A stretch of 64,000 nt of DNA, from NCBI GenBank assembly GCA_903908245.1, contig CAIVRE010000002.1, positions 90,761-154,760 on the forward strand, given 5' to 3'. Both the position numbers and the translations under genes were made by a program. The notes under the pieces are model-generated. The model saw only the letters and a list, made by a program, of their open reading frames with translations, had not been told where the DNA came from and searched no databases. How positions within the stretch are numbered: the first letter of the stretch is position 1; each line of letters opens with the position of its first letter. Of the stretch, positions 595 through 39,737 are shown in pieces. This DNA is from Candidatus Omnitrophota bacterium (lineage in GTDB: Bacteria; Omnitrophota; Gorgyraeia; Zapsychrales; Fredricksoniimonadaceae).

Positions 595-2223
<1,629 letters not shown>

Positions 2224-2236
2224 CCCCGTTTATGGT

Positions 2237-4006
2237 TCAACCCTTGATGATCGTATTAAATTGCTCCTGGAGAGAACGGACCATATCCCAGTCTCCCGCT
2301 TTCTCCGCCAGTTTCATCGCGTCGCGCAAACGCTGCCGCTCCGCTTTCTGCCGGGTCCCCTTGATGCTTTTAACACAGTCGGCGAACATCCGCTTCTGGT
2401 CATTGAACACCACATCGTCCTGCGCAAGGCGCGTCAGGATCGACCTTGTTGCATCATCCCCGAATGAATTAATAAGCGCCGCCACGCCGACCTGTTTCTC
2501 CCTGTCGAACAACTCGTAGACTTTGGCGACGATAAGCCTGATGGCATCGTCCTTCAGGTCTTCCGGCAGGATGACCACGCGCGACTCCGCCACCCATTTT
2601 GGGTCCACCAGCATGAGCTTGAGGAGCAAACTTTCCTCAGGGGAAAGCTCCTTGCGCTCATACGCCTTCTTTGCTTCACCGCCGCCCGGCCTCGACTGCA
2701 CGATATTCCCCAGACGGCGCCGTTCTTTGATAACAGCCTCCTCGGGGATCTGCAGCCTGCCCGCCAACTCCCGCACATATCCATCCCTGACCACTTCACT
2801 TGGTATTTTGTCGATGGTGGGAAGCATCTCCTGACAGATCATCGCCCGGCCTTCGATCGTATGCGCATTATGCGCGGCCATTAAACGGCCTAATTTGAAA
2901 TCGAAAAGGCTGTGAGCTTGTTTGATCCGGTCGCGGAAAGCGTCCGCCCCATCCTTGAGGATGAATGAATCCGGGTCTTCGTCGTCGGCAAGGGCGGCCA
3001 CGCGCACGTTCATGTCCTCTTCAAGGAGGATATCCAGGCTGCGCAGGGTCGCCGCTTGGCCAGCGGTGTCCATATCAAAGAGCATAATAACATTACGTGT
3101 ATAACGCCTGATCAGGCGGACCTGATCGGCCGTAAGCGCGGTGCCCAGCGAAGCCACCACGTTCTCAATACCGGCCTCGACAGGCCGGATAAGGTCCATG
3201 TAACCCTCTACAATAATGACCGCATCCTCGCGGGTGATCGCATCCTTGGCCCAGTTAAGGCCGTAAAAATGCCGGCCCTTGGTGTAAAGGATGCTCTCCG
3301 GCGAATTGATGTATTTCGCCTTGTCATCTTTCTTGAGAGCACGCGCGCCGAAAGCCAGGGCGCGGTTACGGTAATCAAAGATCGAAAATATCACCCGGCC
3401 GCGGAACCGGTCGTAAAACCCCTGGCCCTTATCGCGAGGAACAACCAGGCCGGACTTTAAAATAACTTCATCGGAAAATCCTTTTTGCTTCAGCTCTTTG
3501 GCCAACCCGTCCCAGGCGTCGTACGCGTAACCGATCTTGAAACGTTTCACGCAATCAAGGCTGACCGTCCGCGACTTTAAATAATCCCTGGCGATCCCAA
3601 CCTCCGGCTCCTTGCCGGTAACAAGATTGCGGTGATAATACTCGACCGCCACCTCGTTGGCCTTGAACACCATCTGCCGCAGGTCATCTTTGACCCTGGC
3701 GCCCGGATCTGTTTCCGGGATGACCACGCCGGCCTTGGCCGCGAGCATCCTTACCGCCTCGGCAAAATCCAGCCGCTCATGCTTCATCACAAAACTGAGG
3801 ACGTTCCCGCCTTCATGACAGCCGAAGCAATGGAAGATCTGCTTGCCCGGCGTCACAACGAACGACGGTGTTTTCTCATTATGGAACGGACAAAGAGCTT
3901 TATAATTCGCGCCCGCCTTCTTCAACGGGATATAGCTTCCGATCAACTCGACGATATTCGTCCGGTCGATAACCTGCCCGATAACATCTTCCGGTATCAA
4001 ACCCAC
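2237..4006 (-). CDS. dnaG: DNA primase DnaG
   Basis: N-terminal CHC2 zinc finger (CPFHNEKTPSFVV...HCFGC) and a TOPRIM region (VIIVEGYMDLI...MLFDMDTAG). Sits 13 bp upstream of rpoD in the classical dnaG-rpoD arrangement. Confidence 0.93.
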   Translation of the reverse strand: MGLIPEDVIGQVIDRTNIVELIGSYIPLKKAGANYKALCPFHNEKTPSFVVTPGKQIFHCFGCHEGGNVLSFVMKHERLDFAEAVRMLAAKAGVVIPETDPGARVKDDLRQMVFKANEVAVEYYHRNLVTGKEPEVGIARDYLKSRTVSLDCVKRFKIGYAYDAWDGLAKELKQKGFSDEVILKSGLVVPRDKGQGFYDRFRGRVIFSIFDYRNRALAFGARALKKDDKAKYINSPESILYTKGRHFYGLNWAKDAITREDAVIIVEGYMDLIRPVEAGIENVVASLGTALTADQVRLIRRYTRNVIMLFDMDTAGQAATLRSLDILLEEDMNVRVAALADDEDPDSFILKDGADAFRDRIKQAHSLFDFKLGRLMAAHNAHTIEGRAMICQEMLPTIDKIPSEVVRDGYVRELAGRLQIPEEAVIKERRRLGNIVQSRPGGGEAKKAYERKELSPEESLLLKLMLVDPKWVAESRVVILPEDLKDDAIRLIVAKVYELFDREKQVGVAALINSFGDDATRSILTRLAQDDVVFNDQKRMFADCVKSIKGTRQKAERQRLRDAMKLAEKAGDWDMVRSLQEQFNTIIKG

Positions 4007-4024: not shown

Positions 4025-4597
4025 TTATTTCTTGATCACATCTCTGAGTGTCTGCCCTACCGCCGGATTCTTCTTCTGGTCGGGCAAAAGCCGCGTCACA
4101 AAACGATCGCAAGCCTCCCGATAGAGCACCGGGGCGACCAGCAGGACATGCCTGCCGGATAATGATGATAAAGTCATGGTCTGCAAGTACTTCTGTCCGG
4201 ATGCAAGGAACAGGAACATCAGCATACTGGCAGTTAACACGAGCCGGCCCACCGCAATGACCACCGCGCCCCATTTGTCGACCGCGTTCTCCGCTTTCAC
4301 CGAAAAAAGCATCAGAAGCCCGTCACGACTGAATTTGCATACCAGCAGTGTCATCACCCATAGAAAAGCAAAAGCCGCAGCCGCAAGGAGCGTCGGCGGA
4401 ATAATTGTCTTTTGAACCACGCCGCTCAAGGCAGTATAAAAATGAAAAGAGACCATCAACGCCAACAGGAGCGCCAGGGTCTTGAGGAACTCGACCACAA
4501 AACCGGTCTGTGCGCTGACATAAAAGATCCTTATTGCGATCAGCAGAACAACAATGTCCACCCAATTAATGCTTTTGAGTATTTCCATCAGTTCCAT
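4025..4597 (-). CDS. CvpA-family membrane protein
   Basis: 190 aa, four predicted TM helices. The N-terminus MELMEILKSINWVDIVVLLIAIRIF... is typical of the colicin V production (CvpA) family. Sits immediately upstream of dnaG. Confidence 0.6.
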   Translation of the reverse strand: MELMEILKSINWVDIVVLLIAIRIFYVSAQTGFVVEFLKTLALLLALMVSFHFYTALSGVVQKTIIPPTLLAAAAFAFLWVMTLLVCKFSRDGLLMLFSVKAENAVDKWGAVVIAVGRLVLTASMLMFLFLASGQKYLQTMTLSSLSGRHVLLVAPVLYREACDRFVTRLLPDQKKNPAVGQTLRDVIKK

Positions 4598-4654: not shown

Positions 4655-4690
4655 CAAAGTATAACATATGACTTTTTAGAATGCCAATAA
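4655..4690 (-). promoter_or_regulatory. candidate sigma-70 promoter for cvpA-like/dnaG/rpoD
   Basis: On the minus strand: TTGGCA (4687-4682), an 18-nt spacer, then TATACT (4663-4658), about 60 nt upstream of the ATG at 4597. The 112-bp intergenic region is AT-rich. Confidence 0.25.
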
Positions 4691-4709
4691 AAATAACGCG
4701 TACAACCGA

Positions 4710-7649
4710 TCAGCGGACTGTCGATAACCGCCAGCGCCTCAAACCCATCCAGAACACAAGAGCCAATACCAAAAGCAGCCACGAAGGTGCAGGGGAATTG
4801 ACGCTATTCTGAGGCACCTCGGGCGTTTTCTCAAAATCAAACACATCGGACGCCGCCATCATCTGCTTCTCTTTATCCTTTAAACCCCTCCATTGAGCAT
4901 CCCGTTCAACCACCATATACGCGGTTGCCGGTGTCAGGACCCCCAGCTTCCGGCTTTGTTCAACCAGCCAGGGCTTTTCCTTATCCATTAAACGAACACT
5001 GGCCATAGCCGCCTCATTGCGAAAGATCAATTCCAGCCCATGTTCATAACCCTCATCATTCAAAAGGGATCCCGTCTTCTCCAATGGCTTGAACCCTCCC
5101 GCACCAGGATCATAGACCTCTACCCGGCCGGTATCGAGCCTGTCCGTATACCCACGCGCATCGGATGACACCGCAGAAACCCTTGATCCCTGCCGCAAAA
5201 GAACAACCCTGTCACTGGCGGAAGCTTCCGATGCGCTCCACAAAGGACGCTGTTCCCTGCCTTTATTCGGTGCAATGATCAAATACTGGCCTGCCTCGGG
5301 AATATACCTCTTAAAAACATCCATTTTCTCGGAAAAAGGCAATACATTCTGAGGCGCCCCCGTTAAAACAACAAACAGCGGATATTCCTGCCAGCAATCC
5401 GAGCCCGCACGGTCCAGGCACGTTTCTTTATATTCCAATACCGCATTCTGGATAACCCTTTGCAGGTCCAGGGACCCGCGTAAAGGCAAAGACACCCGCC
5501 CAAACGCCCTTCCCAGGTACGCGGCATCACGCACATCAACAAACCCCGAAGACAATGCCCGCGCCTCAAAATTGGCTTCCGTCAATTTCGCCTTACGGAT
5601 ACCGGGATATTGCGCGGCAACGCTCCGGATCAGCGCTTCATACGCTGCCGAGCCCATCGAAGCCTGGGCAGAACGGTCAATAATAAAATGAAAGTACGGC
5701 TTTCGCGCCAAAGCTGGCAACCGGGCGATCACGCCCCCGGGCAGGATCAGCGCAGATGCGCCGACAACGCCCGCCGAAGGAGCGTCTGCTGACGCCGCCG
5801 TCAGGACAACAGGCCGGCCATTGAGCCTGACCGCAGGATAAAAATGCTCGGGGTAAAGAAAATCGATCTCGACCTGCCGCGTCTCATTCTGCAGGACAGG
5901 GAACACCTTCAATTCCACCCGGGTCGGCGACTGATAGGCCAGAAGGCCGGGATCCCGCCGGGTATTCTTGATCTGGTCATACACCCACATGGCCGTCTTC
6001 TTTTCAAAGATCCGGCCCGGCACCATTGCATCCCCAACCTTCAGGCGAAAACCGGTGATCAACACGCCCGGAGGAAGGTCGATCGTCTGATAAAATTCCC
6101 GCGGCCCGGAAAATTGCCATGCATATTGATCTTCTTTAACTGCCGTCTCGGCCTTCGGGGCCCATGCCATCGATAAACTCAAGGTGCTCTGAACAAGATC
6201 CGAAGACGGCTTAACAGATGCCACGCCTTCTGCAACAATGTTCACCTCGCGCTCATGCGGCGCCCGCCACCCTGTACCGGCCCTCATGCGCGAGCTGCGC
6301 CCCCAATAACTGCTGACTGAAACTTCCGGCAATTCTTCACCGGAGAACAATTTGTAAACATAGCTGATCTTCTCGTCAGGCAAGACCATACCTTCAAAAA
6401 CGATCGCATTATAAAGATCGGACAAATACGGGAGCCCGTCACCCTCTTTGAATTGCTTGAGCGCCCTCATGGTCCGCGCCACATCTTGCGCCGCGCCAGG
6501 GAACTTCAGGTCCCCGTGGCCTTCCGATGAATACACATATTCCAGCGCCTGCTTCAGGACGATCTTGTCTTTCACGACCTGGACACCAAAGAACAAAGGA
6601 AGGACCAGGAGCCCTGCACAAACAAACATGACGGCTCTGCGCAGCCCGAGTCCGGCTACTGCGGCTTTCCAGTCGTCCATAAGCGCTTTCGTATGGACCA
6701 GGAACAACGCAACGGGGATCCAGGCCAGAAAGCCGAACCCGAAAAACAACACCGCCAGAATACCCAACGGCAGAAAAGGCAGGACGATCAGAAAAAAATA
6801 CGCCGTAACAAGAAAAGTGACACTGCGCAGGAATAAGCCCCAGCCCACCGATCCGGGATTTCGCAATGGCGGAAGGATCATCAGGATCCCGTTGATAGAC
6901 ACCAGAACGAACAGCAATATCCCTTCAGGCCCCGTCCACACCTGGAACACCTTTATAAAAAGAGAGATCATTGCCGGGCCGGACGCCGCCAGAAGAATAC
7001 GCAGGATGGAATTCTCCAATGCTCCTTTAACAACAAGGCTTTGATAGGTTGCCATCACAAAACGGACGAACAACTGCATGAAGAACAAACACACAGCCGC
7101 AAAAATAAAGAACGGAACAAATGAGAATGCGGCATACCTGTCCCCGAAGACCATGACCGTCCCAAGCAGCAACATCGGCATCAGAAAGATCCCGCCAAGG
7201 ATAAAAACCGGCAAACGGCCTTCATCGATCTCGAGCTTATGACAGGAGATCCTGACCACCCCGTAAAATATCCCGGGCATCATGAACGTGGCCTGGGACA
7301 GAAAAAGATCGCCCTGGTCGATGATCCAGCGGTCAATATTCATGGGGACAAGCTTCATCCCGCCATTCATAAAGATATAAAGATAAATAATATTCAAGCA
7401 CATCAGGAGCACGCTCATTTTCGCGGGGACCACGGCACCCCGCGAAAAACTCTGCCACCACAGCGCCACCGCAAGGCCGATCATCGCGGCCTCACAGGCA
7501 CCGACAGCCAGCCAACTTTCCCGGGCCTCCGGCCCGACCAGCCAGCACGCGTGGCAATTGATCAAAAGAAGGACGACCTGCGGCAGGATAAAAACCCAGA
7601 TCAACGCGGCCGGCGTCCCGAAAGACTCGGGCAGATTTGGCTTATTCAT
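4710..7649 (-). CDS. large polytopic membrane protein with a C-terminal sorting-signal-like anchor; possible exosortase-system VIT/vWA-domain protein
   Basis: 979 aa. About 350 aa of N-terminal hydrophobic helices, then about 600 aa of soluble domain. The C-terminus reads ...NSVNSPAPSWLLLVLALVFWMGLRRWRLSTVR, a Pro-rich motif, one TM helix and an Arg cluster, the tripartite architecture of PEP-CTERM-type signals. The start overlaps the stop of the upstream exosortase-like gene by 8 bp. The VIT/vWA assignment is from memory of the XrtN-system VIT family and is not motif-verified here. Confidence 0.55.
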   Translation of the reverse strand: MNKPNLPESFGTPAALIWVFILPQVVLLLINCHACWLVGPEARESWLAVGACEAAMIGLAVALWWQSFSRGAVVPAKMSVLLMCLNIIYLYIFMNGGMKLVPMNIDRWIIDQGDLFLSQATFMMPGIFYGVVRISCHKLEIDEGRLPVFILGGIFLMPMLLLGTVMVFGDRYAAFSFVPFFIFAAVCLFFMQLFVRFVMATYQSLVVKGALENSILRILLAASGPAMISLFIKVFQVWTGPEGILLFVLVSINGILMILPPLRNPGSVGWGLFLRSVTFLVTAYFFLIVLPFLPLGILAVLFFGFGFLAWIPVALFLVHTKALMDDWKAAVAGLGLRRAVMFVCAGLLVLPLFFGVQVVKDKIVLKQALEYVYSSEGHGDLKFPGAAQDVARTMRALKQFKEGDGLPYLSDLYNAIVFEGMVLPDEKISYVYKLFSGEELPEVSVSSYWGRSSRMRAGTGWRAPHEREVNIVAEGVASVKPSSDLVQSTLSLSMAWAPKAETAVKEDQYAWQFSGPREFYQTIDLPPGVLITGFRLKVGDAMVPGRIFEKKTAMWVYDQIKNTRRDPGLLAYQSPTRVELKVFPVLQNETRQVEIDFLYPEHFYPAVRLNGRPVVLTAASADAPSAGVVGASALILPGGVIARLPALARKPYFHFIIDRSAQASMGSAAYEALIRSVAAQYPGIRKAKLTEANFEARALSSGFVDVRDAAYLGRAFGRVSLPLRGSLDLQRVIQNAVLEYKETCLDRAGSDCWQEYPLFVVLTGAPQNVLPFSEKMDVFKRYIPEAGQYLIIAPNKGREQRPLWSASEASASDRVVLLRQGSRVSAVSSDARGYTDRLDTGRVEVYDPGAGGFKPLEKTGSLLNDEGYEHGLELIFRNEAAMASVRLMDKEKPWLVEQSRKLGVLTPATAYMVVERDAQWRGLKDKEKQMMAASDVFDFEKTPEVPQNSVNSPAPSWLLLVLALVFWMGLRRWRLSTVR

Positions 7650-8208
7650 AAAAGAGCTCCCTTTCCCAATAAATTATTACAGCGCACAGGACGGGAAGGA
7701 ACACCATCACTCCCACCCCCAAATGAAGCAACCCCTGGAACTTTTCCAGGCTCAAGGCTTGAGCCCAGGCATGAACATAATATGCACCCACGATCCGGAT
7801 GCCATTAAGAAGTATCGTTAAAAGGTACGCTCCCGCCACTGTCGCCGCAACCGCGGCCCATTTAAAGACAGGCCGGGACTGGTACCTGGAAAGGATATGC
7901 ACAACAGAAACAGAAACGATCAAAGAAAAGAACCCGAACGCGTCACACTCCCGTGTCACGCGGACCAGCGTCCCCGAAACCGGGATCACCCAACTCCCGT
8001 CGATCAGGGAAGGCTTCTGCCAGAAGAACAAACCCGCAATATATGCCGCCGGCTGCCCCCATAAAAAGTGGATCCATTGCGCCACTACACGATGGCCGGA
8101 CCACAATAAATTTGTGAACGCGAACAACCCGACCGCCTGCAGGACGATCAGGTCATTCTTGACAACACTATGCTGAACCTTTGTCGAACGATCGCTCATA
8201 AACGGCAC
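7642..8208 (-). CDS. short exosortase/archaeosortase-family protein (possible XrtN-type)
   Basis: 188 aa, entirely hydrophobic helices. Has a Cys in a TM context (VTRECDAFGFF) and an N-x-x-R motif (LLNGIRIVGAYY), resembling the conserved Cys/Asn/Arg of exosortases. Translationally coupled to the 979-aa protein downstream and 4 bp from the small TM gene upstream. Confidence 0.5.
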   Translation of the reverse strand: MPFMSDRSTKVQHSVVKNDLIVLQAVGLFAFTNLLWSGHRVVAQWIHFLWGQPAAYIAGLFFWQKPSLIDGSWVIPVSGTLVRVTRECDAFGFFSLIVSVSVVHILSRYQSRPVFKWAAVAATVAGAYLLTILLNGIRIVGAYYVHAWAQALSLEKFQGLLHLGVGVMVFLPVLCAVIIYWERELFYE

Positions 8209-8211
8209 CGC

Positions 8212-8418
8212 TCACTTCTGCATGGTCACGTAAGTATAAGTAAAAAGCCCCCCTGTGATCATCACGGCTCCGGCAATAAAATAAACGCCGGAAACAGCGA
8301 TCAGCTGAAGGTCCCAGCCTATCGCGTACGGAACGACCAGAAGCGAACCGAACGCTCCCAGCGTGAACACCGTCAATGCAACGGCCTTACACATTGTTTT
8401 GATAGCTTCGGGTGTCAT
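8212..8418 (-). CDS. small 2-TM membrane protein, unknown function
   Basis: 68 aa with two hydrophobic helices (AVALTVFTLGAFGSLLVV; VSGVYFIAGAVMITGGLF). Ends 4 bp before the exosortase-like gene. Confidence 0.5.
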   Translation of the reverse strand: MTPEAIKTMCKAVALTVFTLGAFGSLLVVPYAIGWDLQLIAVSGVYFIAGAVMITGGLFTYTYVTMQK

Positions 8419-8504
8419 AACAACCTCCTGTTTTAAACTGTCTCCATCGATCCATCGCCGCTCTTCCCGGGGGCGGCCTCTCCCGTCTGATCTTCCCTAA
8501 AACC

Positions 8505-9827
8505 CTACACCTCCTCCCGGCACCACCGATGATACGACATAGCGGCGAAAAAGATCCCGGCCGCGGCCACTGACCCTGTATGCAACAGGATCGTCCGTAC
8601 GTCATAAGCCGGGACACCCCAGAACTCGGCCAGCGCATAAGCGCCATACAACACAATAAGGCTCACCGCCATCCGCTGGTCCTTCCATGTAGCCACATAG
8701 GCCAGCAAAGCAAGGGTCATCTGCGTGAACACGCCGGTAAAGACCAGATAGGCCCAGAACTTCGACGAGTAAATGAACGGCAATCCCCACAGCACCGCCG
8801 GAATGATCCCGAAAAGGACCGATGTCATGACCCACGCCGCCAGAAGCGCTGCCGCCAGCAGGACGCCCCATTGCACGGCCACCCCTTCCCGGCGCACGGG
8901 ACGCAGCAGGGCGTAATCCCGGAACGCCACGGTACGGTAATAAAAACACAGCATCACCGTCAGCGGAGCCGCGACAAAAACGAGGAAATTGACATACGGC
9001 CGCGCATAGAATCCCGTCGGGCCAGCGATAAAAAGAACATAAGCCATGAACACCGCGGCCCCCGCCAGCAGCATCCCCCCGATGCCAGGGACCGCCTCAT
9101 CTTCCACATACGCCCAATGAAAAGCCTGGCCGATAAGGTTTTTCTGTTGCGCGTAAAGCGGGGCCTTCCGGTACACATAAGGGCGGCTTGATGTGCGGGT
9201 CCTGGCGCGGTGCAGCGGCCAGGACAGAACATACGCGTATTCCACCATGCCCTCGTTCAACATCGCCAGGCGCCACAGGAACCCCGTGAGCAACAGGACC
9301 GCCACCGCCGTCAACCCGTAGAACGCGGCATCCGACACGACCAGAAGCTGCAAAAGGTCCCGTGAATGCCCGACGATAAAAAGCAGGGCCCCGTAACCGA
9401 TGAAGAGGATCATCCTCCCGGAAATATACGCGATCACGATCGTGGCAAGAAAGGTCCCCAGGCACAGCACGATCCAGGCCCACTTGACCCGCTCCCCGAC
9501 AAGGTCCGTCAACCCCGACAGCCACCAGGCCGTCACAAAAGCCACGGCCAGCCACAAGAAACTCCCGACGGCAATATGCGCTGCACGGTACCCCGGGACC
9601 AGCCGCGCCATGGGAGACGCCATCTGGCGCTTGATCATGACCCCGAACTGAAAGGCCAGCGTCATCCAGAGACAAAGCCAGACGGTGGTCAGCTCGTCGA
9701 ACAGGTCCCACTGCTTTCCGGCCATGAACACCTTGCCCAGCGCAAGAACAGCAACAAACCCGAGGACCAGGGCCATCCAAAGCCAGCGCTCCCGATACAA
9801 CATGAGAACAGCCTGTATCCTTTTCAT
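8505..9827 (-). CDS. polytopic permease partner of the ABC ATPase (ABC-2-like), no recognisable family
   Basis: 440 aa with roughly 10-12 hydrophobic segments. Its start overlaps the ATPase stop (ATGA-type coupling). Confidence 0.55.
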   Translation of the reverse strand: MKRIQAVLMLYRERWLWMALVLGFVAVLALGKVFMAGKQWDLFDELTTVWLCLWMTLAFQFGVMIKRQMASPMARLVPGYRAAHIAVGSFLWLAVAFVTAWWLSGLTDLVGERVKWAWIVLCLGTFLATIVIAYISGRMILFIGYGALLFIVGHSRDLLQLLVVSDAAFYGLTAVAVLLLTGFLWRLAMLNEGMVEYAYVLSWPLHRARTRTSSRPYVYRKAPLYAQQKNLIGQAFHWAYVEDEAVPGIGGMLLAGAAVFMAYVLFIAGPTGFYARPYVNFLVFVAAPLTVMLCFYYRTVAFRDYALLRPVRREGVAVQWGVLLAAALLAAWVMTSVLFGIIPAVLWGLPFIYSSKFWAYLVFTGVFTQMTLALLAYVATWKDQRMAVSLIVLYGAYALAEFWGVPAYDVRTILLHTGSVAAAGIFFAAMSYHRWCREEV

Positions 9828-10699
9828 CGGCTCATCTCCAGAAAGATCTCTTCCAGGTTCAGATCCTCGACGTCCACCTTTACGCCCAGCGCCTTCTCAA
9901 GGCCCTGACGACGGCCCTCGTTATAACCGCGGACGGTCAATATGGCCTGCTGTCCACGGACATAACTGTTGACCAGCCCCTCCATCACCAATGGCGGCAG
10001 GGCTCCGGTAGGGCAATGCACACGGATACGCTTGACCTCGTCTTTGAGCTCATCAAGCCCGCCGCAGAAATCGATCTTGCCGGACCGCAGGACCGCCACC
10101 GTATCGGCCACACGCTCAAGGTCGGAGGTGATATGCGTCGAGAAGAAAATGGTGCACTTGCGCTCGGAAACAACTTCCAGGATGGTCTTAAGGAACTCCC
10201 GCCGCGCCACCGGGTCCAGGCTTGCCACCGGCTCGTCAAAAACCAAAAGTTCCGGCTCATGGCCCAGGGCAAGAATAATAAGGAGCTTTTGCATCTCTCC
10301 CTCTGAAAGGACCTCAACGCGCGTGGCAAGGTCCAGATCCCACTCCCGCACAAGCCTGTCCACCAGTGCAGCATTCCAATGCGGATAAAAGGACGCCGTA
10401 TACTCGATAAGCCTGCCCGCCTGAAGCCACGGATAAGGCCGATACCCCTGGGGGACATAACCGATCAACGCCTTGGCCTTGTTGGACAGGTCCCATGATC
10501 CCTCGCCGAAAACCGTCATCTTCCCCGAATCCGTCTTGAGCAAGCCCAGGACACATTTAAGCAGCGTCGTCTTGCCGGCCCCGTTCTTTCCCAAAAGGCC
10601 GATCACAGACCCTTCGGGCACATCCAGAAAGACTCCGTTGAGGACCGCCTTGCGGCCATAAGCCTTTTTGACATCTTCACAATGGATAACGTTAGACAT
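9824..10699 (-). CDS. ABC transporter ATP-binding protein
   Basis: Walker A GLLGKNGAGKTTLLK, signature LSEGEMQKLLIILAL, Walker B LLVFDEPVASLD. Confidence 0.9.
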   Translation of the reverse strand: MSNVIHCEDVKKAYGRKAVLNGVFLDVPEGSVIGLLGKNGAGKTTLLKCVLGLLKTDSGKMTVFGEGSWDLSNKAKALIGYVPQGYRPYPWLQAGRLIEYTASFYPHWNAALVDRLVREWDLDLATRVEVLSEGEMQKLLIILALGHEPELLVFDEPVASLDPVARREFLKTILEVVSERKCTIFFSTHITSDLERVADTVAVLRSGKIDFCGGLDELKDEVKRIRVHCPTGALPPLVMEGLVNSYVRGQQAILTVRGYNEGRRQGLEKALGVKVDVEDLNLEEIFLEMSR

Positions 10700-11096
10700 G
10701 ATGATCTTCCTCCCAGATATTTTTCAATTTCGTCAGGACGCTCTCCTGGTCAAGGGACAATTGCCGCGCGCTGTTAACCACTTCCCTTATAAGCAGGATC
10801 AACCGGTCCTGGCTCATATCAGGAATAGTAATATTTTCCGCTTTGGCCGGTATCCGCATCCCCTGGCCACGCACGAATTCAATAATGCCGCTCTTCTCTA
10901 ATAAAGAATACGCCTTTGACACGGTCATGGGATTGACTTCAAGGCTCTTGGACACATCCCGGATCGAAGGCAGGAATTCACCGGCAGTGAACTTGCCCAT
11001 CGCAATTCCGATCTTGACCTGGTCATAGATCTGCCGGTAGATCGGCACGCCCGATGTTGGATTGATCTGAAAGTATAACCTGGCATTAATATCCAT
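10692..11096 (-). CDS. GntR-family transcriptional regulator, short YtrA-like subtype
   Basis: 134 aa. N-terminal GntR winged HTH (LPSIRDVSKSLEVNPMTVSKAYSLLEKSGIIEFVRGQGMRI). Short C-terminus and first gene of an ABC operon, as in the YtrA subfamily. Confidence 0.85.
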   Translation of the reverse strand: MDINARLYFQINPTSGVPIYRQIYDQVKIGIAMGKFTAGEFLPSIRDVSKSLEVNPMTVSKAYSLLEKSGIIEFVRGQGMRIPAKAENITIPDMSQDRLILLIREVVNSARQLSLDQESVLTKLKNIWEEDHHV

Positions 11097-11329
11097 ATTC
11101 CTCCTCGTATGATCTTATACTGCATCAGTAGTATAATACACAGATACACCAATGTCAATACTGAACAACATAATTCATTAATATCTGTTAATTATTGCAG
11201 TATATTGACTTAAGATAATATTATTACTATCGATAAATATTTTCTTACGAACATTTACATATGTGCATTATTCATATGATACAGTACTTATCGTAGCAAT
11301 TGTATGCATTAGCGAGCGGGTGACGCCAG

Positions 11330-11530
11330 ACGCTTAGGGCGAAAGCATCTAACCCAATGCGATTGAGGGCTCGGCTTACCACCATATAAGATAAAGACGA
11401 GACCTCCTAGCATTGGGTTAGATGCTGAAGCCAAAGCGATGAGCCCCAGGCGACAGTACCCGCGAGCAAATGGGAGGCGTGATGGCAAAAGGGCGGAAGC
11501 ATTCATGCCAATGCGATTGAAGGCTCGGCC
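11330..11530. repeat. structured repeat element between the smc terminator and the GntR operon promoter
   Basis: Perfect 15-bp inverted repeat, gcatctaacccaatg (11335-11349) against cattgggttagatgc (11400-11414), with a 50-nt spacer. A roughly 40-nt direct repeat also occurs: gaaagcatctaacccaatgcgattgagggctcggc (about 11330) and gaagcattcatgccaatgcgattgaaggctcggcc (about 11487). Confidence 0.5.
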
Positions 11531-11535
11531 TTCTA

Positions 11536-11569
11536 ATAAAAAAGCCCGTGTCAAAAGATCGACACGGGC
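11536..11569 (-). terminator. rho-independent terminator of smc
   Basis: Stem gcccgtgtc / gacacgggc (11544-11552 / 11561-11569) with an 8-nt loop. On the minus strand a TTTTTTATT run follows. Lies 23 nt after the smc stop. Confidence 0.75.
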
Positions 11570-11592
11570 TTGAATACACCAAGGAAACTTTA

Positions 11593-14500
11593 TTAAACAG
11601 CCGCGAGAGCTTCGTCCTGCGATTGGGCATTGGCTTCAAAAGACGCACTGACTTCCGCCTCGACGGGAACCGGCACAGGCAAAGCTTCAGGTGCCGAAAC
11701 AACTTCCGGTGCGGAAACTTCCATGGCCGCGGCGCCCGTCGGCTCTTTGGCTTTTTCAGCGAACTTCACCGAAACCACGCGCGACACGCCGGTCTGCTGC
11801 ATAGTGATGCCATACATCACATCCGCGTGCGCAATAGTCTTTTTATTATGCGTGATCACGATGAACTGCGCGACCTTCGCGAACTCCTTGAGGACACTCG
11901 CAAAACGGTCCACATTGGCCTCATCGAGCGCCGCGTCGATCTCGTCAAGCACGCAGAAGGGGCTGGGGTTCACGCGGAACACCGCGAAAATAAGCGCGAT
12001 GGCCGTCATGGTCTTTTCTCCGCCCGACAGCAGGCTGATGGTCTGCAGCTTCTTACCCGGCGGGCGGGCCACGATCTCGATCCCCGACTCCAGCGCGTTC
12101 TCGGGGTCCAGCAGCACCAGCTGAGCCTCGCCGCCGTTAAATAACATGCGGAAATACGAACGAAACTGTTCATTGACCTTCACAAAAGTATCCATGAACA
12201 ACTGCCGGGTCGTCTTGTTGATCTTGCGGATGGTCTGGTCGAGCAGGTCCTTGGCCGCCAGCAGGTCGCTCTGCTGCTTGGTAAGGAAATGGAACCGGTT
12301 CTTGAGCTCTTCGAATTCCTCGATCGCCATCAGGTTCACACCGCCGAACGATTCGCAGCGCTTGGCCAGCGTCTGGATCTCAAGCTTTAACGCCTCAACA
12401 TCAATTTGAGGCTGTGCCTGTTCGGGAGCCTGCGAACCATCCATCCCCGGCATATCCATCGCCACGCCCGGCGTTGCCGCAGCCGCGTTGAGGTCAATAT
12501 TATATTTCTGGAACACGCGCTCCTTGACCGCCTGCTCCTGATACTCGATCTGCTGGACCTTCATTTCCTTCTCGTGGACCATATCGCGATTATCCGCGAT
12601 CTCTTTTTCCATCATCATGATCTGCGTACGCACGCTCGACAGGCGCTGGGAAACATCCTGCTCCTCCACCTCAAAACGGCTCAAGGACCCGTGTAATTCT
12701 TCTTTGGCCGCCTTGAACTGCTCGATATTGCGCTGAAGCTGTTCAATATCCTCATTGAGCTTGATCCTGCGTTCGCCAATAGAGGCCGCTTCCGTGTTCA
12801 ACCGGGAGATCTCGTCCAGAAAGCTGTTTAGGGCGGCCCTGAACATCTCCAGGTTATCCCGCCAGGAACGTTCCTTATCTTTCAGGGCATTAAGCTCGCT
12901 CTCCATCTGGGCGGACGCCACTGCAGCCTCTTCGCGCTCGTGACGCCTGGCCGACAGCGACTCCTCGCGGCCTTTAAGGCCGCTGCGGATGAACGCCACT
13001 TCCTCTTCCGCACGCGTCAACTCGGCCCGTAAATGGCCGTCTCTTTCGTTCGATCTCGTCAACCCCTGGTCGACTTCCGCGACCTCCATCGCGACGGCCT
13101 GGATCTCGTCGGATATCTTCCTGGCCTCAAGCCCGATATCATTCTGCTGGGCCTCGCAAACAGAGAGGCGGCGTTCTTCGGCGTGGATCTCGCCCAGGAT
13201 ACGGTCAATAAGCTTTGACTGGTCGGCAGCCATCGCCACCTTGACCTGCTTTTCGATCACCAGGTTCTTGACGTCCTCCTCGATCGCGCTGATCTGCGCG
13301 GCCAGCGACTGGGGGTCAAGTTCAATGAATTTTGTTTCGCAGATGATCTCGTAAAGGGCTCCGCTGTCAAAACGGCTCAAATGGCTTTTCAAACTTTCAT
13401 GACGGGACGGATCGACCGCGATCACTTCCTTGATCTTGCCCATGAATCCGGTCTGCCCGGCCACCGGCACGCTGGCCGACAGGAAACGCCCGTCGATCAC
13501 AGGGTCCGGCATGTCCTGGTACTGCACATGCATCTTTTCAATAAAATCTTTTTGGGAAATAAGGAAGAATTTCTTTTTCTCCAGGCCGTCAATAGACGAC
13601 GCCAGCGCATTAAGCTCTTCATTCTGGCGGCCGAGGATCTCCTTCTCACGGAACAGGTCCCCGCTCAAACCGTCGCGCCGCGCCATCACATCCACGATCC
13701 CCTGCGATATCCCGGCCAGGCGGCGTTCGATCTCTTCCTTTTCCGTCTGCGCCTTTAACTGCTCGACATCCAGGCGGCGGCGGCGGGCCAGGAACCCCTG
13801 CGTTTCTTTCATCACTTCCGTCAAGGCATTGGTTGTTTCCACCTGGCGCGCGGTCATCGCAAGGATCGTCTCCTCGTCCTTGTGCATGGCCTCCTGGCAC
13901 TCCAGGATCGCCTGCGCAGCGCCGGCAAGCTCGGCCTTCTTGGCGTTCAAACCCGCCAGGGACGCTTCAACATTCGCGTTGAACATCGCGAGCGCACCTT
14001 CAAGCTCGCTGATCTTTTCCTGATGCCCGCGGCATTTATCGGCGAGAACGACCTTCTGGTCCGCGATCCGCTTTTCATTCTGGTCCAGGTTCGCGAGGCG
14101 CTCCTCGTCAAACCCGGCCTGGCGGTTGGCCATATCGATCTGATTCTCCAGCTTGATATCCTGCTCACGCACTTCCTGTACTTTGGCCTCAAGGTCTTCG
14201 AGCAGGATCGACTCGCGCTCCACCACCTGGCGGTACTCCTCGAGTTCGCGCGAAACATCCGTCTCCTTGCCCTGCACTTGCGCCAGGAAAGACTGCACCT
14301 CTTCCCTCTCCCTCTTGAAACCATCGAGCTGATACAACGCGAAGATCTGTTCAAACCCTTTGAGCTTTTCGAACTCTTCCTTGTAACGCTGGGCCTTGTT
14401 GGCCTGACGCTCGATGGACGATATCTGACGCTTGACCTCAACGACAATATCATTGATGCGCAGAAGATTATCCTCGGTCTCCTTGAGCTTGCCCTGGGCT

Positions 14501-15027
14501 TCGCGCTTTTTGGATTTATATTTGGTGATCCCGGCCGCCTCATCGAAGATCATGCGGCGGTCATCGGCTTTCGCGCTTACAACCAGGTCGACCTTGCCCT
14601 GCTGGACCAGCGAATAAGACTCGGCACCCACGCCGGTACCCATGAAAAGCTCAGTCACATCCCTCAAACGGGAAGTCTCTTTATTGATCAGGTATTCACT
14701 CTCACCAGAACGGAACAAGCGGCGGGTGATCAAAACCTCATCCGCGTTCAACTGAAGGGTCCGCGACCTGTTATCAAAAGCAACGCTGACCTCGGCAAAA
14801 CCGAGGGCCAGCTTGGTATCGGTCCCGTTAAAAATAACATCCTGCATCTCGCCGCCGCGCAGCTGCTTGACGCTCTGCTCGCCGAGCACCCAACGGATGG
14901 CATCGAACACGTTGCTTTTCCCGCAGCCATTCGGCCCGACCACCGCCGTAACCCCTGGCTCGAAATTAAGCACGGTCTTTTCCGCGAAGGACTTAAACCC
15001 GAATATTTCCAGACGTTTAAAATACAT
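11593..15027 (-). CDS. smc: chromosome segregation protein SMC
   Basis: 1144 aa. N-terminal Walker A (GPNGCGKSNVFDAIRWVLGEQS), long coiled coils, a hinge, C-terminal signature LSGGEKTMTAIALIFAVF and Walker B CVLDEIDAALD. Confidence 0.95.
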   Translation of the reverse strand: MYFKRLEIFGFKSFAEKTVLNFEPGVTAVVGPNGCGKSNVFDAIRWVLGEQSVKQLRGGEMQDVIFNGTDTKLALGFAEVSVAFDNRSRTLQLNADEVLITRRLFRSGESEYLINKETSRLRDVTELFMGTGVGAESYSLVQQGKVDLVVSAKADDRRMIFDEAAGITKYKSKKREAQGKLKETEDNLLRINDIVVEVKRQISSIERQANKAQRYKEEFEKLKGFEQIFALYQLDGFKREREEVQSFLAQVQGKETDVSRELEEYRQVVERESILLEDLEAKVQEVREQDIKLENQIDMANRQAGFDEERLANLDQNEKRIADQKVVLADKCRGHQEKISELEGALAMFNANVEASLAGLNAKKAELAGAAQAILECQEAMHKDEETILAMTARQVETTNALTEVMKETQGFLARRRRLDVEQLKAQTEKEEIERRLAGISQGIVDVMARRDGLSGDLFREKEILGRQNEELNALASSIDGLEKKKFFLISQKDFIEKMHVQYQDMPDPVIDGRFLSASVPVAGQTGFMGKIKEVIAVDPSRHESLKSHLSRFDSGALYEIICETKFIELDPQSLAAQISAIEEDVKNLVIEKQVKVAMAADQSKLIDRILGEIHAEERRLSVCEAQQNDIGLEARKISDEIQAVAMEVAEVDQGLTRSNERDGHLRAELTRAEEEVAFIRSGLKGREESLSARRHEREEAAVASAQMESELNALKDKERSWRDNLEMFRAALNSFLDEISRLNTEAASIGERRIKLNEDIEQLQRNIEQFKAAKEELHGSLSRFEVEEQDVSQRLSSVRTQIMMMEKEIADNRDMVHEKEMKVQQIEYQEQAVKERVFQKYNIDLNAAAATPGVAMDMPGMDGSQAPEQAQPQIDVEALKLEIQTLAKRCESFGGVNLMAIEEFEELKNRFHFLTKQQSDLLAAKDLLDQTIRKINKTTRQLFMDTFVKVNEQFRSYFRMLFNGGEAQLVLLDPENALESGIEIVARPPGKKLQTISLLSGGEKTMTAIALIFAVFRVNPSPFCVLDEIDAALDEANVDRFASVLKEFAKVAQFIVITHNKKTIAHADVMYGITMQQTGVSRVVSVKFAEKAKEPTGAAAMEVSAPEVVSAPEALPVPVPVEAEVSASFEANAQSQDEALAAV

Positions 15028-15056: not shown

Positions 15057-15302
15057 TTAGGATCCCACTTGTGCGGTAGAGTCAGCTTCCAGCCACTTGT
15101 CGATACGGTCGCGGCGAAATCGCCACAAACCGACCGTCTTCATGGCAGGGATCTTCCCCTTCTTGACCCAGTCATAAACCGTGCGTTTCTTGACCCTCAA
15201 ATAACCCGCGACCTCATCAATGGTCATCAGGTTCCCGATCTGTTCGATATTAGGCTTTGAATTCTCCATAACTATATATAGACCCCCAACTGGATAATAC
15301 AC
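15057..15302 (-). CDS. excisionase-family / MerR-like HTH DNA-binding protein
   Basis: 81 aa. MTIDEVAGYLRVKKRTVYDWVKKGKIPAMKTVGLWRFRRDRIDKWLE matches the excisionase-family HTH pattern. Lies 29 bp upstream of smc. Confidence 0.7.
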   Translation of the reverse strand: MYYPVGGLYIVMENSKPNIEQIGNLMTIDEVAGYLRVKKRTVYDWVKKGKIPAMKTVGLWRFRRDRIDKWLEADSTAQVGS

Positions 15303-36101: not shown

Positions 36102-37262
36102 TCATGAAAGAATATCTCCACCCCACAACTGCTGACAAAAGTCTTGCCATGGCATGATCATAATATCCCCCACCCGGCGCATGGCGCGTTCATTACAAAC
36201 AAGGATCGCTTTCCTGGGTTTATACTGATCAACAAAAGATCGTAATCCCCGCATATCCGCGCTATCAACCCTTGAGACACCTTTAACCTCCACCGCCACT
36301 TCTCCGCCGGCCAGAACAAAGTCAACCTCATGCCCCGACTTGGTCCGCCAATAATTGATCTCAAAATCCTTACGGTCATATTCACGGAACGCGGCCAATT
36401 CCATAAAAATAAAATGTTCAAACGCTTTCCCGAAAACATCCCCTTTTAGGTCATGGATCTTCCGTTTAAGCACAGCACCCGCCACCCCGACATCAAAAAG
36501 ATAAAATTTCTCCGCCCGGGTAATAACGCCCCTGTCCTGGGATCGTTTAAAGGGAGCCACCAAACGCCCCAGAAGGGTATCCACCAGGATCTGATAATAT
36601 TCCCTGACCGTTTTCGCCTCCACACCGCAATCACGCGCGATATTCGCGAAATTCAACATTTCACCATGGGAATAACTCATGGCATCAAAGAATCTTGAGA
36701 ACGCGGGAATGTTGCGCACCAACCCCTCGCTCGCAACCTCTTCTTTCAGGTAATCCTGCACATAAGCCGTCAAAGACCGTTGCGCGTCATCCTGCAAATA
36801 GTGGGAAGGGATCAATCCGTTATTCAATGCTTTTAACAAGTTGAAGCGCGGCAATTCCGCGGAAACAAACGGGAGCATTTCATATCGCCACGCCCTGCCG
36901 CCCAAAAGATTGGCGTGCCCGCGCCTCAACTTGCGGGCGCTTGAACCGCAGAGAATGAACCGCAGCCCTTTCTCTTCGATCAAATAATGGACCTCATCCA
37001 TCACTGCCGGGATCTTCTGAACTTCATCAAGGATAACAGGATGGGAAAGCTGTACAGGCGTCAACCCCAGGATCCGGTGCCGCAGGACAGAAGGGCTTTT
37101 ACTCACATCAAAAAAAAGGTCTGTATCAAGAAAATTAAATGAAACACTATCAGGGAAATTCTTACGTAAGAATGTCGTCTTCCCCGTCTTGCGCGGGCCC
37201 CATAAAAAAGCTGACTGCCGGGAAGGAAGCTTTATTCTCAATCGACGGATCATGTTTTCCAT
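36102..37262 (-). CDS. AAA+ ATPase fused to a C-terminal PD-(D/E)xK nuclease-like domain (COG1373 / AAA_14+DUF4143 type), paralog 1
   Basis: Walker A GPRKTGKTTFL, Walker B VILDEVQKIP. The C-terminus has HEVDFVLAGGEVAVEVKGVS, a D...(D/E)xK nuclease-like motif. Confidence 0.8.
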   Translation of the reverse strand: MENMIRRLRIKLPSRQSAFLWGPRKTGKTTFLRKNFPDSVSFNFLDTDLFFDVSKSPSVLRHRILGLTPVQLSHPVILDEVQKIPAVMDEVHYLIEEKGLRFILCGSSARKLRRGHANLLGGRAWRYEMLPFVSAELPRFNLLKALNNGLIPSHYLQDDAQRSLTAYVQDYLKEEVASEGLVRNIPAFSRFFDAMSYSHGEMLNFANIARDCGVEAKTVREYYQILVDTLLGRLVAPFKRSQDRGVITRAEKFYLFDVGVAGAVLKRKIHDLKGDVFGKAFEHFIFMELAAFREYDRKDFEINYWRTKSGHEVDFVLAGGEVAVEVKGVSRVDSADMRGLRSFVDQYKPRKAILVCNERAMRRVGDIMIMPWQDFCQQLWGGDILS

Positions 37263-38426: not shown

Positions 38427-39737
38427 CTATTCCGCCAAAACATACTCCTGGAACTTCCACAACAAATAGAGCGGGATATTCCTCAACCTCTCACCGGAAA
38501 GATTGTCCAGGGATGTTGTCACCGCGATCTCCGGCGAATATCTCTTCCTGTACTCCGCAAGGCTGCGGGATCTGTTATTACGCCCGGATTTCACTTCAAC
38601 AGGCACAATCCCTGACCCGATCTGTACTATAAAATCAAGCTCTGCCAAATTATTAGACTTCCAATAAAACGGCATAGAAATACCGGAATTCAACAACTCC
38701 GTCAATACAAAGTTCTCCGCCAAAGCCCCTTTAAACTCTTTGTACACCTCCGGTCCTTGATAGATCGTCTCGGCAGGCAATTGGGCCATTTTTCTCAATA
38801 AGCCAACATCCGCCGCATACAATTTAAAGTAATTACGATCGGCATACGCGCAAAGAGGCATAAACGGTTTCTCTATCCTGGCAACTTTATGAACCATACC
38901 GGCCGCGATCAGCCATTCAAGGGCATCTTCAAGCTCTTTCGCCCTTGCCCCCGGCCTGACATGGCTAAAAATAAATTTGCCATTCTCCCTGGCAAGCTGG
39001 CTGGGAATGGACTTCCAGATCAGATTCAACCTTGGAATATCCGCTACAGGCGCGTGCTTGGCAAAATCCAGTTCGTAAGAATCCAATATCTGCTGCTGAA
39101 CCATTTCGACAGCAGAAACATCTTTTGTTTCTACCCATTTAGCAACAGCTTCCGGCATACCACCCGTAATATAATAATTTCTCAAGAGATCAACCAGTCT
39201 CCCGGTAAACAATTCAGGGATCGGCTCCGACTTCTTCAAGCCAGACAAGAAATCAAGGATATCTTTTCCCTGTTCCGCCAAAACAAATTCATAGAAACCC
39301 ATCGGGCGCAATGTCAGAAAATCAACCTTGCCGACAGGAAAAGAAAATGGCTTTGCTACGGCGATCCCGATCAATGATCCAGCGCAAACCACATGATACT
39401 CAGGCGCTTTCTCACAGAAATACTTCAAAGAGGTTAAAGCAAGGCCGCAAAATTGTATCTCATCAAAAATGATCAACGTTGCTTCAGGCCTAATGGCTTT
39501 TCCGCGAAACACGCCCAACTCTGTAACTATTCGCCGAGGATCAAGGTCCCGCTCAAAACATTTCTGTAAATGTTCATTACCTTCAAAATTAAAATAAGCG
39601 ACATCATCATAAGCTCGCCTTCCAAATTCTTTAAGAAGATAAGTCTTCCCGGACTGCCGCAACCCCTTTACTAATAGTGGCTTGCGAACCTTTGAATCTT
39701 TCCAGTTATAAAGGTCTTTTATCGCTGATCTATCCAT
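38427..39737 (-). CDS. AAA+ ATPase fused to a PD-(D/E)xK nuclease-like domain (COG1373 type), paralog 2
   Basis: Walker A GLRQSGKTYLL, Walker B LIIFDEIQFCG. The C-terminus has AELDFIVQIGSGIVPVEVKSG. Confidence 0.8.
   Translation of the reverse strand: MDRSAIKDLYNWKDSKVRKPLLVKGLRQSGKTYLLKEFGRRAYDDVAYFNFEGNEHLQKCFERDLDPRRIVTELGVFRGKAIRPEATLIIFDEIQFCGLALTSLKYFCEKAPEYHVVCAGSLIGIAVAKPFSFPVGKVDFLTLRPMGFYEFVLAEQGKDILDFLSGLKKSEPIPELFTGRLVDLLRNYYITGGMPEAVAKWVETKDVSAVEMVQQQILDSYELDFAKHAPVADIPRLNLIWKSIPSQLARENGKFIFSHVRPGARAKELEDALEWLIAAGMVHKVARIEKPFMPLCAYADRNYFKLYAADVGLLRKMAQLPAETIYQGPEVYKEFKGALAENFVLTELLNSGISMPFYWKSNNLAELDFIVQIGSGIVPVEVKSGRNNRSRSLAEYRKRYSPEIAVTTSLDNLSGERLRNIPLYLLWKFQEYVLAE

Follow-up and report, generated by a model that had tools for sequence, protein, structure and literature searches.

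The genes around the element described here all lie on the minus strand of the window (the whole stretch of DNA analysed, 64 kb in length). On this strand, the element comes after the strong intrinsic terminator of smc and before the promoter of an operon encoding a YtrA-like GntR regulator and an ABC ATPase (Table 1). That promoter (TTGACA-17-TATACT) is part of an AT-rich zone, with a GC content of 0.22-0.31 at 11100-11300 against 0.50-0.58 at 11300-11550. The GC profile and the smc terminator thus agree with the first-pass annotation, which had described a GC-rich block between a terminator and an AT-rich promoter zone. Immediately upstream of smc, at 15057-15302, is a small HTH_17 gene (excisionase-like fold), which we regard as a backbone gene rather than an island marker because the same position is kept in the relative L104. 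Elsewhere in the window, two paralogous AAA_14/DUF4143 ATPase genes (36102-37262 and 38427-39737) lie within a gene cluster for the biosynthesis of polysaccharides (Wzy_C, sugar transferases, epimerases) at about 29-41 kb.

Table 1. Features of the locus, in window coordinates.
Feature	Position	Strand	Description or basis
RpoD gene	595-2214		
DnaG gene	2237-4006		
CvpA gene	4025-4597		
8-bp direct repeat, second copy, cvpA side	4686..4693		AATAAAAA
Lineage-specific insertion, 6.84 kb	about 4697..11533	-	Synteny, empty site in L104/L105, gene calls
ABC ATPase	9824-10699	-	Pfam
GntR regulator, YtrA-like	10692-11096	-	Pfam
AT-rich promoter/operator of the GntR cassette	11097..11312	-	-35 TTGACA 11158-11153; -10 TATACT 11135-11130; operator-like GTGTATCTGTGTATTATAC
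U1, forward copy, left arm of the long hairpin	11305..11390	+	Alignment; nhmmer E = 3.6e-23
Imperfect hairpin/cruciform of U1 + U2, ~150 nt	11316..11463		Predicted, -71 kcal/mol on +, -74 on -
Left arm, perfect 17-bp inverted repeat	11344..11360		AGCATCTAACCCAATGC; includes core GCAT-N8-ATGC common to all three units
U2, reverse copy, right arm of the long hairpin	11385..11475	-	Alignment; nhmmer E = 5.5e-16
Right arm, perfect 17-bp inverted repeat	11410..11426		
U3, forward copy, most diverged	11459..about 11533-11544	+	Alignment; nhmmer E = 1.5e-20; fold
8-bp direct repeat, smc side	11535..11542		AATAAAAA; terminator T-tract on -
Intrinsic terminator of smc	11542..11571	-	13-bp stem, 4-nt loop, then TTTTTTATTA
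SMC	11593-15027	-	

The repeats that had drawn attention to this region are both present. The inverted repeat, initially described as a perfect 15-bp match with a 50-nt spacer, is slightly longer: its 17-bp arms are 100% complementary and are separated by 49 nt. The direct repeat, for which a length of about 35-40 nt and a distance of about 150 bp had been given, spans 55 nt at 76% identity with a spacing of 154 nt (11336-11390 vs 11490-11544), or 40 nt at 85% when delimited by blastn. With a seed of 12 nt, only five inverted repeats were detected over the 64 kb, with no other of the same kind nearby, and there are exactly two occurrences in the window of the 22-mer CCAATGCGATTGARGGCTCGGC, where none is expected (100 shuffles). 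The repeat structure is real and far beyond chance. What the earlier description missed is that the two repeats are one thing. Alignment resolves them into three copies of a single unit of about 85 nt, whose orientation alternates from forward (U1) to reverse (U2) and back to forward (U3), and each of which matches the unit profile with nhmmer E values of 1e-16 to 1e-23. U1 and U2 share 70% identity over aligned columns together with the perfect 17-nt core, outside of which the identity among the units is 55-70%. A perfect run of 17 bp within arms that are about 70% identical is mildly above chance (p about 0.03) and hints at selection or gene conversion acting on the stem or on the GCAT-N8-ATGC site. 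The last 15 nt of U3 form a small hairpin, GAAGGC-TCG-GCCTTC, and the unit terminates at 11533, which is also the boundary of a larger insertion (see below). Alternatively, the element can be described as a palindrome of about 150 bp (U1 + U2) present in 1.5 tandem copies, the second being cut at 11533.

How did this element come to lie between smc and its neighbors? The C-terminus of SMC assigns the organism to a Candidatus Omnitrophota bacterium. In relatives (L002, L004-L011), smc is directly followed by the orthologues of the CvpA, DnaG and RpoD genes of the window. A closer relative (L104/L105), with an SMC 85% identical and synteny over 20 kb, has an empty site: its smc-cvpA spacer of 157 nt comprises a terminator hairpin and a T-tract, directly followed by TTGGCATTC...CATATGTTATACT, the cvpA promoter. 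When the window is compared with L104, homology on one side reaches the 3' end of smc, beyond which a terminator hairpin of different sequence and a T-tract occupy the same position, and on the other side it resumes at 4696 (TTATTTTTATTGGCATTC...) with about 90% identity. It follows from the adjacency of smc and cvpA in the relatives and from this empty site that the window holds an insertion of about 6.84 kb, flanked by the two copies of the 8-bp direct repeat and interrupting a gene order that is conserved in Omnitrophota. From the smc side onward, the insertion contains the three repeat units, the AT-rich promoter, and the genes for the GntR regulator, the ABC ATPase, proteins of 440, 68 and 185 aa, and a VIT-domain protein of 979 aa. 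The repeat element makes up its smc-proximal 220 nt. The VIT-domain gene (4710-7649) is split into ORFs of 688 and 281 aa in some population variants (L097, an ERZ1426628 contig); aligned to the window, L097 shows a gap of 1 nt, and the cause is either a polymorphism that shifts the frame or an error in assembly. The orthologue of the 185/188-aa protein in L088 has a weak match to exosortase EpsH. Another MAG (GCA_015232565.1; L001 6906-12903, L103 1-8891) has a different large insertion at the smc/cvpA site, with smc followed by a giant ORF of >1966 aa, and with an ORF of >2327 aa, an SLFN/AlbA_2-HATPase_c_4 protein and a 1078-aa protein before cvpA. From these comparisons, the spacer between smc and cvpA seems to be a preferred site of lineage-specific insertions.

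The genes of the insertion are found elsewhere without the repeat element. GntR homologues 81-88% identical to that of the window belong to the same cassette in other genomic contexts: adjoining a divergent radical-SAM gene in L092, adjoining a different divergent gene in L088 (truncated by the end of the contig, with 95 aa called), and after two co-directional genes in L091. Upstream of the cassette, the window and these three loci have in common only the promoter/operator (TTGACA...GTGTATTGGTGTATTATACT). The conserved motif reads TTGACA...GTGTAT(T/C)(G/T)GTGTATTATACT (window 11125-11200) and is probably an autoregulatory GntR operator. A second, inverted copy of it lies about 95-130 nt upstream, facing the divergent gene, in L088 (310-350, 450-490) and L092 (2012-2053, 2150-2189). 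The closest cassette, in L094, has a GntR protein 96% identical and an AT-rich region about 93% identical to those of the window, and diverges at about 11312, where the element starts. Past the AT-rich region, the flank of L094 (about 85 nt of real sequence) matches nothing among the collected loci; the start of this contig (L094 1-45; ERZ4201038 NODE_460380) is the Illumina TruSeq adapter GTGACTGGAGTTCAGACGTGTGCTCTTCCGATCT, a contamination. The element is bounded on both sides by comparative breakpoints and, as judged from the loci compared, it is private to this lineage. The conservation in related genomes that the first-pass annotation proposed to look for was not found, as none of the relatives examined has the element.

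Contigs of this population come from seven assemblies, and over the element they are 99.98-100% identical. Because it is near-invariant in the population and absent from relatives, no covariation can be measured. The outer edge of the element is less uniform. Three independent assemblies of this population end at 11518-11533. Two contigs end at exactly 11533, and one of them, L086, continues with nine different bases: on the plus strand it has CACTTTATA instead of TAATAAAAA in the window, which reads TATAAAGTG on the minus strand. Seven of these nine bases are like the sequence that follows U1 (CACCATATA). They could fit a haplotype with U3, a loop and a fourth unit, but also another junction or an assembly artefact. 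A Logan contig spans 4690-11518, almost exactly the insertion, and the neighboring contig starts at 4670. In another assembly no gene is called after smc and the contig probably ends soon after. Overall, contigs breaking at the edges of the insertion (11518-11533 and 4670-4690) include L082, L085, L086 and L099. The alternative bases of L086 suggest local heterogeneity at the outer edge of the element.

What kind of element is it? On balance, we favor a DNA palindromic repeat specific to this lineage, with an architecture resembling that of REPINs and BIMEs, present in at most low copy number and having passive effects only. REPINs and BIMEs, which have been described in Pseudomonas and Enterobacteria, are doublets of REP sequences that form hairpins and are mobilized by RAYT Y1 transposases (PMC3116915, PMC3337134); REPIN doublets are better conserved than singlets (PMC3337134). 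The element resembles them in being extragenic and directly after a terminator, in having an inverted-doublet hairpin (11316-11463, with the 17-bp core and the 49-nt spacer), and in that its adjacent singlet is more diverged than the doublet; as in BIME clusters, its copies alternate in orientation. It differs from them in that we found it at one locus, against tens to hundreds per genome, in that its unit of about 85 nt is not itself a short imperfect palindrome, and in that its doublet hairpin is about 150 nt long against about 90 nt. A REP core, i.e., an imperfect palindrome of 20-40 nt with a conserved flanking tetranucleotide, was not found: the arms of the core GCAT-N8-ATGC are only 4 bp long, and the 6-bp hairpin mentioned above exists only in U3. 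No RAYT was seen, a Pfam scan of the window ORFs from 4.7 to 40.7 kb found no transposase, and no relative of the element turned up in the searched collections.

Other families of intergenic repeats provide a similarly partial match. ERIC/IRU in enterobacteria and Correia/NEMIS in Neisseria are palindromic, MITE-like intergenic repeats of 100-160 bp; each of these families comprises many copies and is conserved between strains, and the terminal inverted repeats of Correia elements are defined and accompanied by a TA duplication. Like them, the element is an imperfect palindrome of about 150 bp, lies in an intergenic region near promoters and terminators, and can fold in read-through transcripts. 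Unlike them, it is found at a single locus in 1.5 tandem copies, with no flanking duplication specific to the hairpin. Its arms are inverted repeats, as in MITEs, but it lacks the target-site duplication and the multiple copies that also characterize these short elements; the hexamer GCGAGC, found at 11312-11317 and 11462-11467, reflects the homology between U1 and U3 and is not a target duplication. Finally, template switching at rearrangement junctions yields inverted and tandem duplications, as in quasipalindrome formation and fold-back repair. The element resembles such products in lying at a rearrangement junction, in its forward-reverse-forward order, in its strand symmetry and in having no counterpart in relatives. 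It differs from them in that its units have diverged to 55-70% except in the 17-bp core and in that no source copy was identified. This divergence implies that a template-switch event would be old, or that the core has been maintained.

The resemblance to REPINs raises the possibility that the element belongs to a dispersed family of non-autonomous mobile repeats (REPIN/BIME- or MITE-like), with copies elsewhere in the genome and a transposase acting in trans from outside the window. The shape of the element (an inverted-doublet hairpin with a more diverged singlet beside it) and its extragenic position immediately after a terminator are what one would expect of such a family. RAYTs, which are Y1 HUH transposases with genes usually flanked by REPs, are single-copy, so that one could be encoded elsewhere in the genome. 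The repeated assembly breaks at the outer edge, one of them with an alternative flank, could also indicate further copies elsewhere in the genome, as a multi-copy sequence would produce them. Yet, the search for other copies, which the first-pass annotation had proposed, returned none in the window, in related loci or in public collections. We found no other copy of the unit in the 64-kb window, in a further 10 kb of the same scaffold and other new loci (117 kb), or in 80 Omnitrophota smc loci (about 0.8 Mb). A search of 107 loci (about 1.07 Mb) by blastn and nhmmer, with the element and with the profile of the unit as queries, recovered nothing but the identical contigs of the population. The exact 22-mer had no match in the GTDB species representatives, the JGI metagenomes or IMG/VR, and blastn against plasmid and phage collections returned nothing. 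A degenerate pattern built from the three units, with 21 specified bases, had a single match in the JGI metagenomes and IMG/VR (L093). This match falls within coding sequence located downstream of an FtsK-like gene; we judged it to be due to chance.

A six-frame translation of the element had no relative among 5.8 billion proteins (E <= 10), which implies that no ORFs were called on other copies of the element in that collection. At the usual density of REP sequences, one per 5-20 kb, several copies would be expected in 64-74 kb, and the lack of a second copy excludes such a density. With no transposase among the window ORFs scanned and a unit that, unlike REP, is not a short imperfect palindrome, we consider a dispersed family unlikely. 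The "REP/MITE-like remnant" of the first-pass annotation is therefore right for the shape and unproven as a family: the inverted-doublet hairpin and the diverged singlet stand, while multiple copies were found in none of the places searched.

The position of the element at one terminus of the insertion suggests a different role in mobility. It could be a cis-acting end, such as an att-like or transposase-binding module, used by a recombinase acting in trans and targeting terminator T-tracts. Transposon ends typically bear repeated subterminal units in both orientations, as the element does, and it lies exactly at one terminus of the insertion, which the 8-bp repeat AATAAAAA flanks in the manner of a target-site duplication. 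The Logan contig and its neighbor suggest heterogeneity for the presence or absence of the insertion in that sample, and the same site has received a different large insertion in L001/L103. However, neither blastn nor nhmmer identified a copy of the unit or a related sequence at the other end, the insertion of 6.84 kb has no terminal inverted repeats, and its gene calls include no recombinase. The flanking 8-mer, composed of A and T and shared by a terminator tail and a region upstream of a promoter, is weak evidence. Besides, L094, with its 96% identical GntR, has the cassette but lacks the element at that position, and in L088 the cassette extends beyond the VIT-domain gene, so that the inserted block gives the impression of an arbitrary piece of a longer stretch and not of a mobile unit with set limits. 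An insertion end is, in our opinion, quite improbable.

Could the element act as an RNA instead? The first-pass annotation had proposed a small RNA or a leader, possibly a riboswitch, for the GntR operon. The predicted fold is very strong, with z scores for the whole region, relative to shuffles, of -6.2 on the plus strand and -5.4 on the minus strand. Alternative structures are possible, as U2 has two potential partners: U1, with which the core is perfect, and U3, which matches it at 76% over the core. A lineage-specific structured RNA could thus be a plus-strand small RNA, divergent from the GntR promoter region, or a minus-strand 3'-UTR or insulator RNA, and a weak promoter-like sequence (TTGACT-17-TATCGA, 11206-11234) faces the element on the plus strand. 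Yet, the fold is symmetric between strands and almost devoid of G-U pairs (1 among the 47 pairs of the plus strand and 4 among the 54 of the minus strand, nearly all being Watson-Crick). The near-absence of G-U pairs and the equal stability on both strands point to an inverted duplication of DNA, with no strand-specific selection on an RNA. We found no credible plus-strand promoter for the element, the terminator hairpin has no U-tract in the plus direction, and no pair of promoter and terminator frames the element on either strand; on the minus strand, it lies after a strong terminator and before the operon's own promoter.

The Rfam scan that had been proposed was run and gave no match at gathering score in the whole window (Rfam 15). 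In E-value mode, the best hits were generic hairpins (miRNA precursors) or terminators with 12-25 bits against thresholds of 41-113. No relative from which covariation could be measured has the element. A small RNA is not supported, and neither is a leader. A leader should be located downstream of the promoter, ahead of the start codon, and be conserved with the operon. Here the GntR promoter (11158-11130) is downstream of the element on the minus strand, which excludes the element as leader of this operon, and the GntR cassettes of relatives lack it. We consider a dedicated structured RNA very improbable and lean towards an element acting at the level of DNA, as the strand symmetry of the palindrome suggests. 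Neither is there support for a coding function. The lack of protein relatives in six frames indicates that the element is not a recognizable pseudogene, and none of the small ORFs in the region has coding support (a Pfam search with the 81-aa ORF included).

The array of three GCAT-N8-ATGC sites could also bind a dimeric protein in the upstream regulatory region of the GntR operon, since GCATnnAnnCCAATGC is kept in all three units (3 matches in the window vs 0.58 expected) and the site centers, 66 and 88 bp apart, would correspond to 6 and 8 turns at 11 bp/turn, but this is hardly credible: the units resemble each other over 40-85 nt, much more than the length of a binding site, a distance of 190-380 bp separates the sites from the -35 hexamer downstream of them, and the motif is missing upstream of orthologous cassettes and elsewhere in the window. 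Three other candidates were rejected. A tRNA origin of the units of about 85 nt was dismissed, as an ARAGORN scan for tRNA and tmRNA found none. In a diversity-generating retroelement (DGR), U1 and U3 would be template and variable repeats, but their differences are not adenine-specific and no reverse transcriptase is encoded among the neighboring genes scanned. An invertible promoter was rejected because only 49 bp lie between the perfect arms and the assemblies break outside of them.

To return to the lineage-specific palindromic repeat that we favor, its history could be as follows. The insertion brought the GntR-regulated ABC/VIT cassette in behind the smc terminator, ahead of the cvpA promoter, and the element would either have formed where the inserted cassette was joined or have come along with it. 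The repeat itself may result from an inverted and tandem duplication, whether through template switching at this junction or as a decayed element of the REPIN/MITE type with low copy number. Its effects would be passive. In a transcript escaping the smc terminator, the element would fold as a hairpin of about 150 nt, which could hinder 3'-exonucleases or read-through into the repressor-controlled operon. As DNA, it could pair ectopically and promote local rearrangement, an effect with which the breaks in the assemblies and the variant junction at its outer edge would agree.

These results have consequences mostly for the annotation of the locus. We see in the element no more than an ordinary repeat at the junction of a gene insertion; it should not be filed as a candidate riboswitch or small RNA, and it has little import beyond annotation. 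The GntR-ABC-VIT cassette is here a recent insertion of 6.8 kb that has entered the conserved backbone smc-cvpA-dnaG-rpoD in an uncultured lineage of Omnitrophota. There is also a bolder reading, to which we give little credence. The repeat may be the functional end of a mobile cassette devoid of transposase, or the first REPIN-like family in Omnitrophota, inserting into terminator T-tracts with an 8-bp duplication and being still polymorphic in the sampled population. The contig breaks at both boundaries of the insertion and the alternative junction at 11533 hint at it. If this reading were true, as a multi-copy repeat or as an active insertion end, the element would offer a first means of studying mobile repeats in a phylum where genetics hardly exists.
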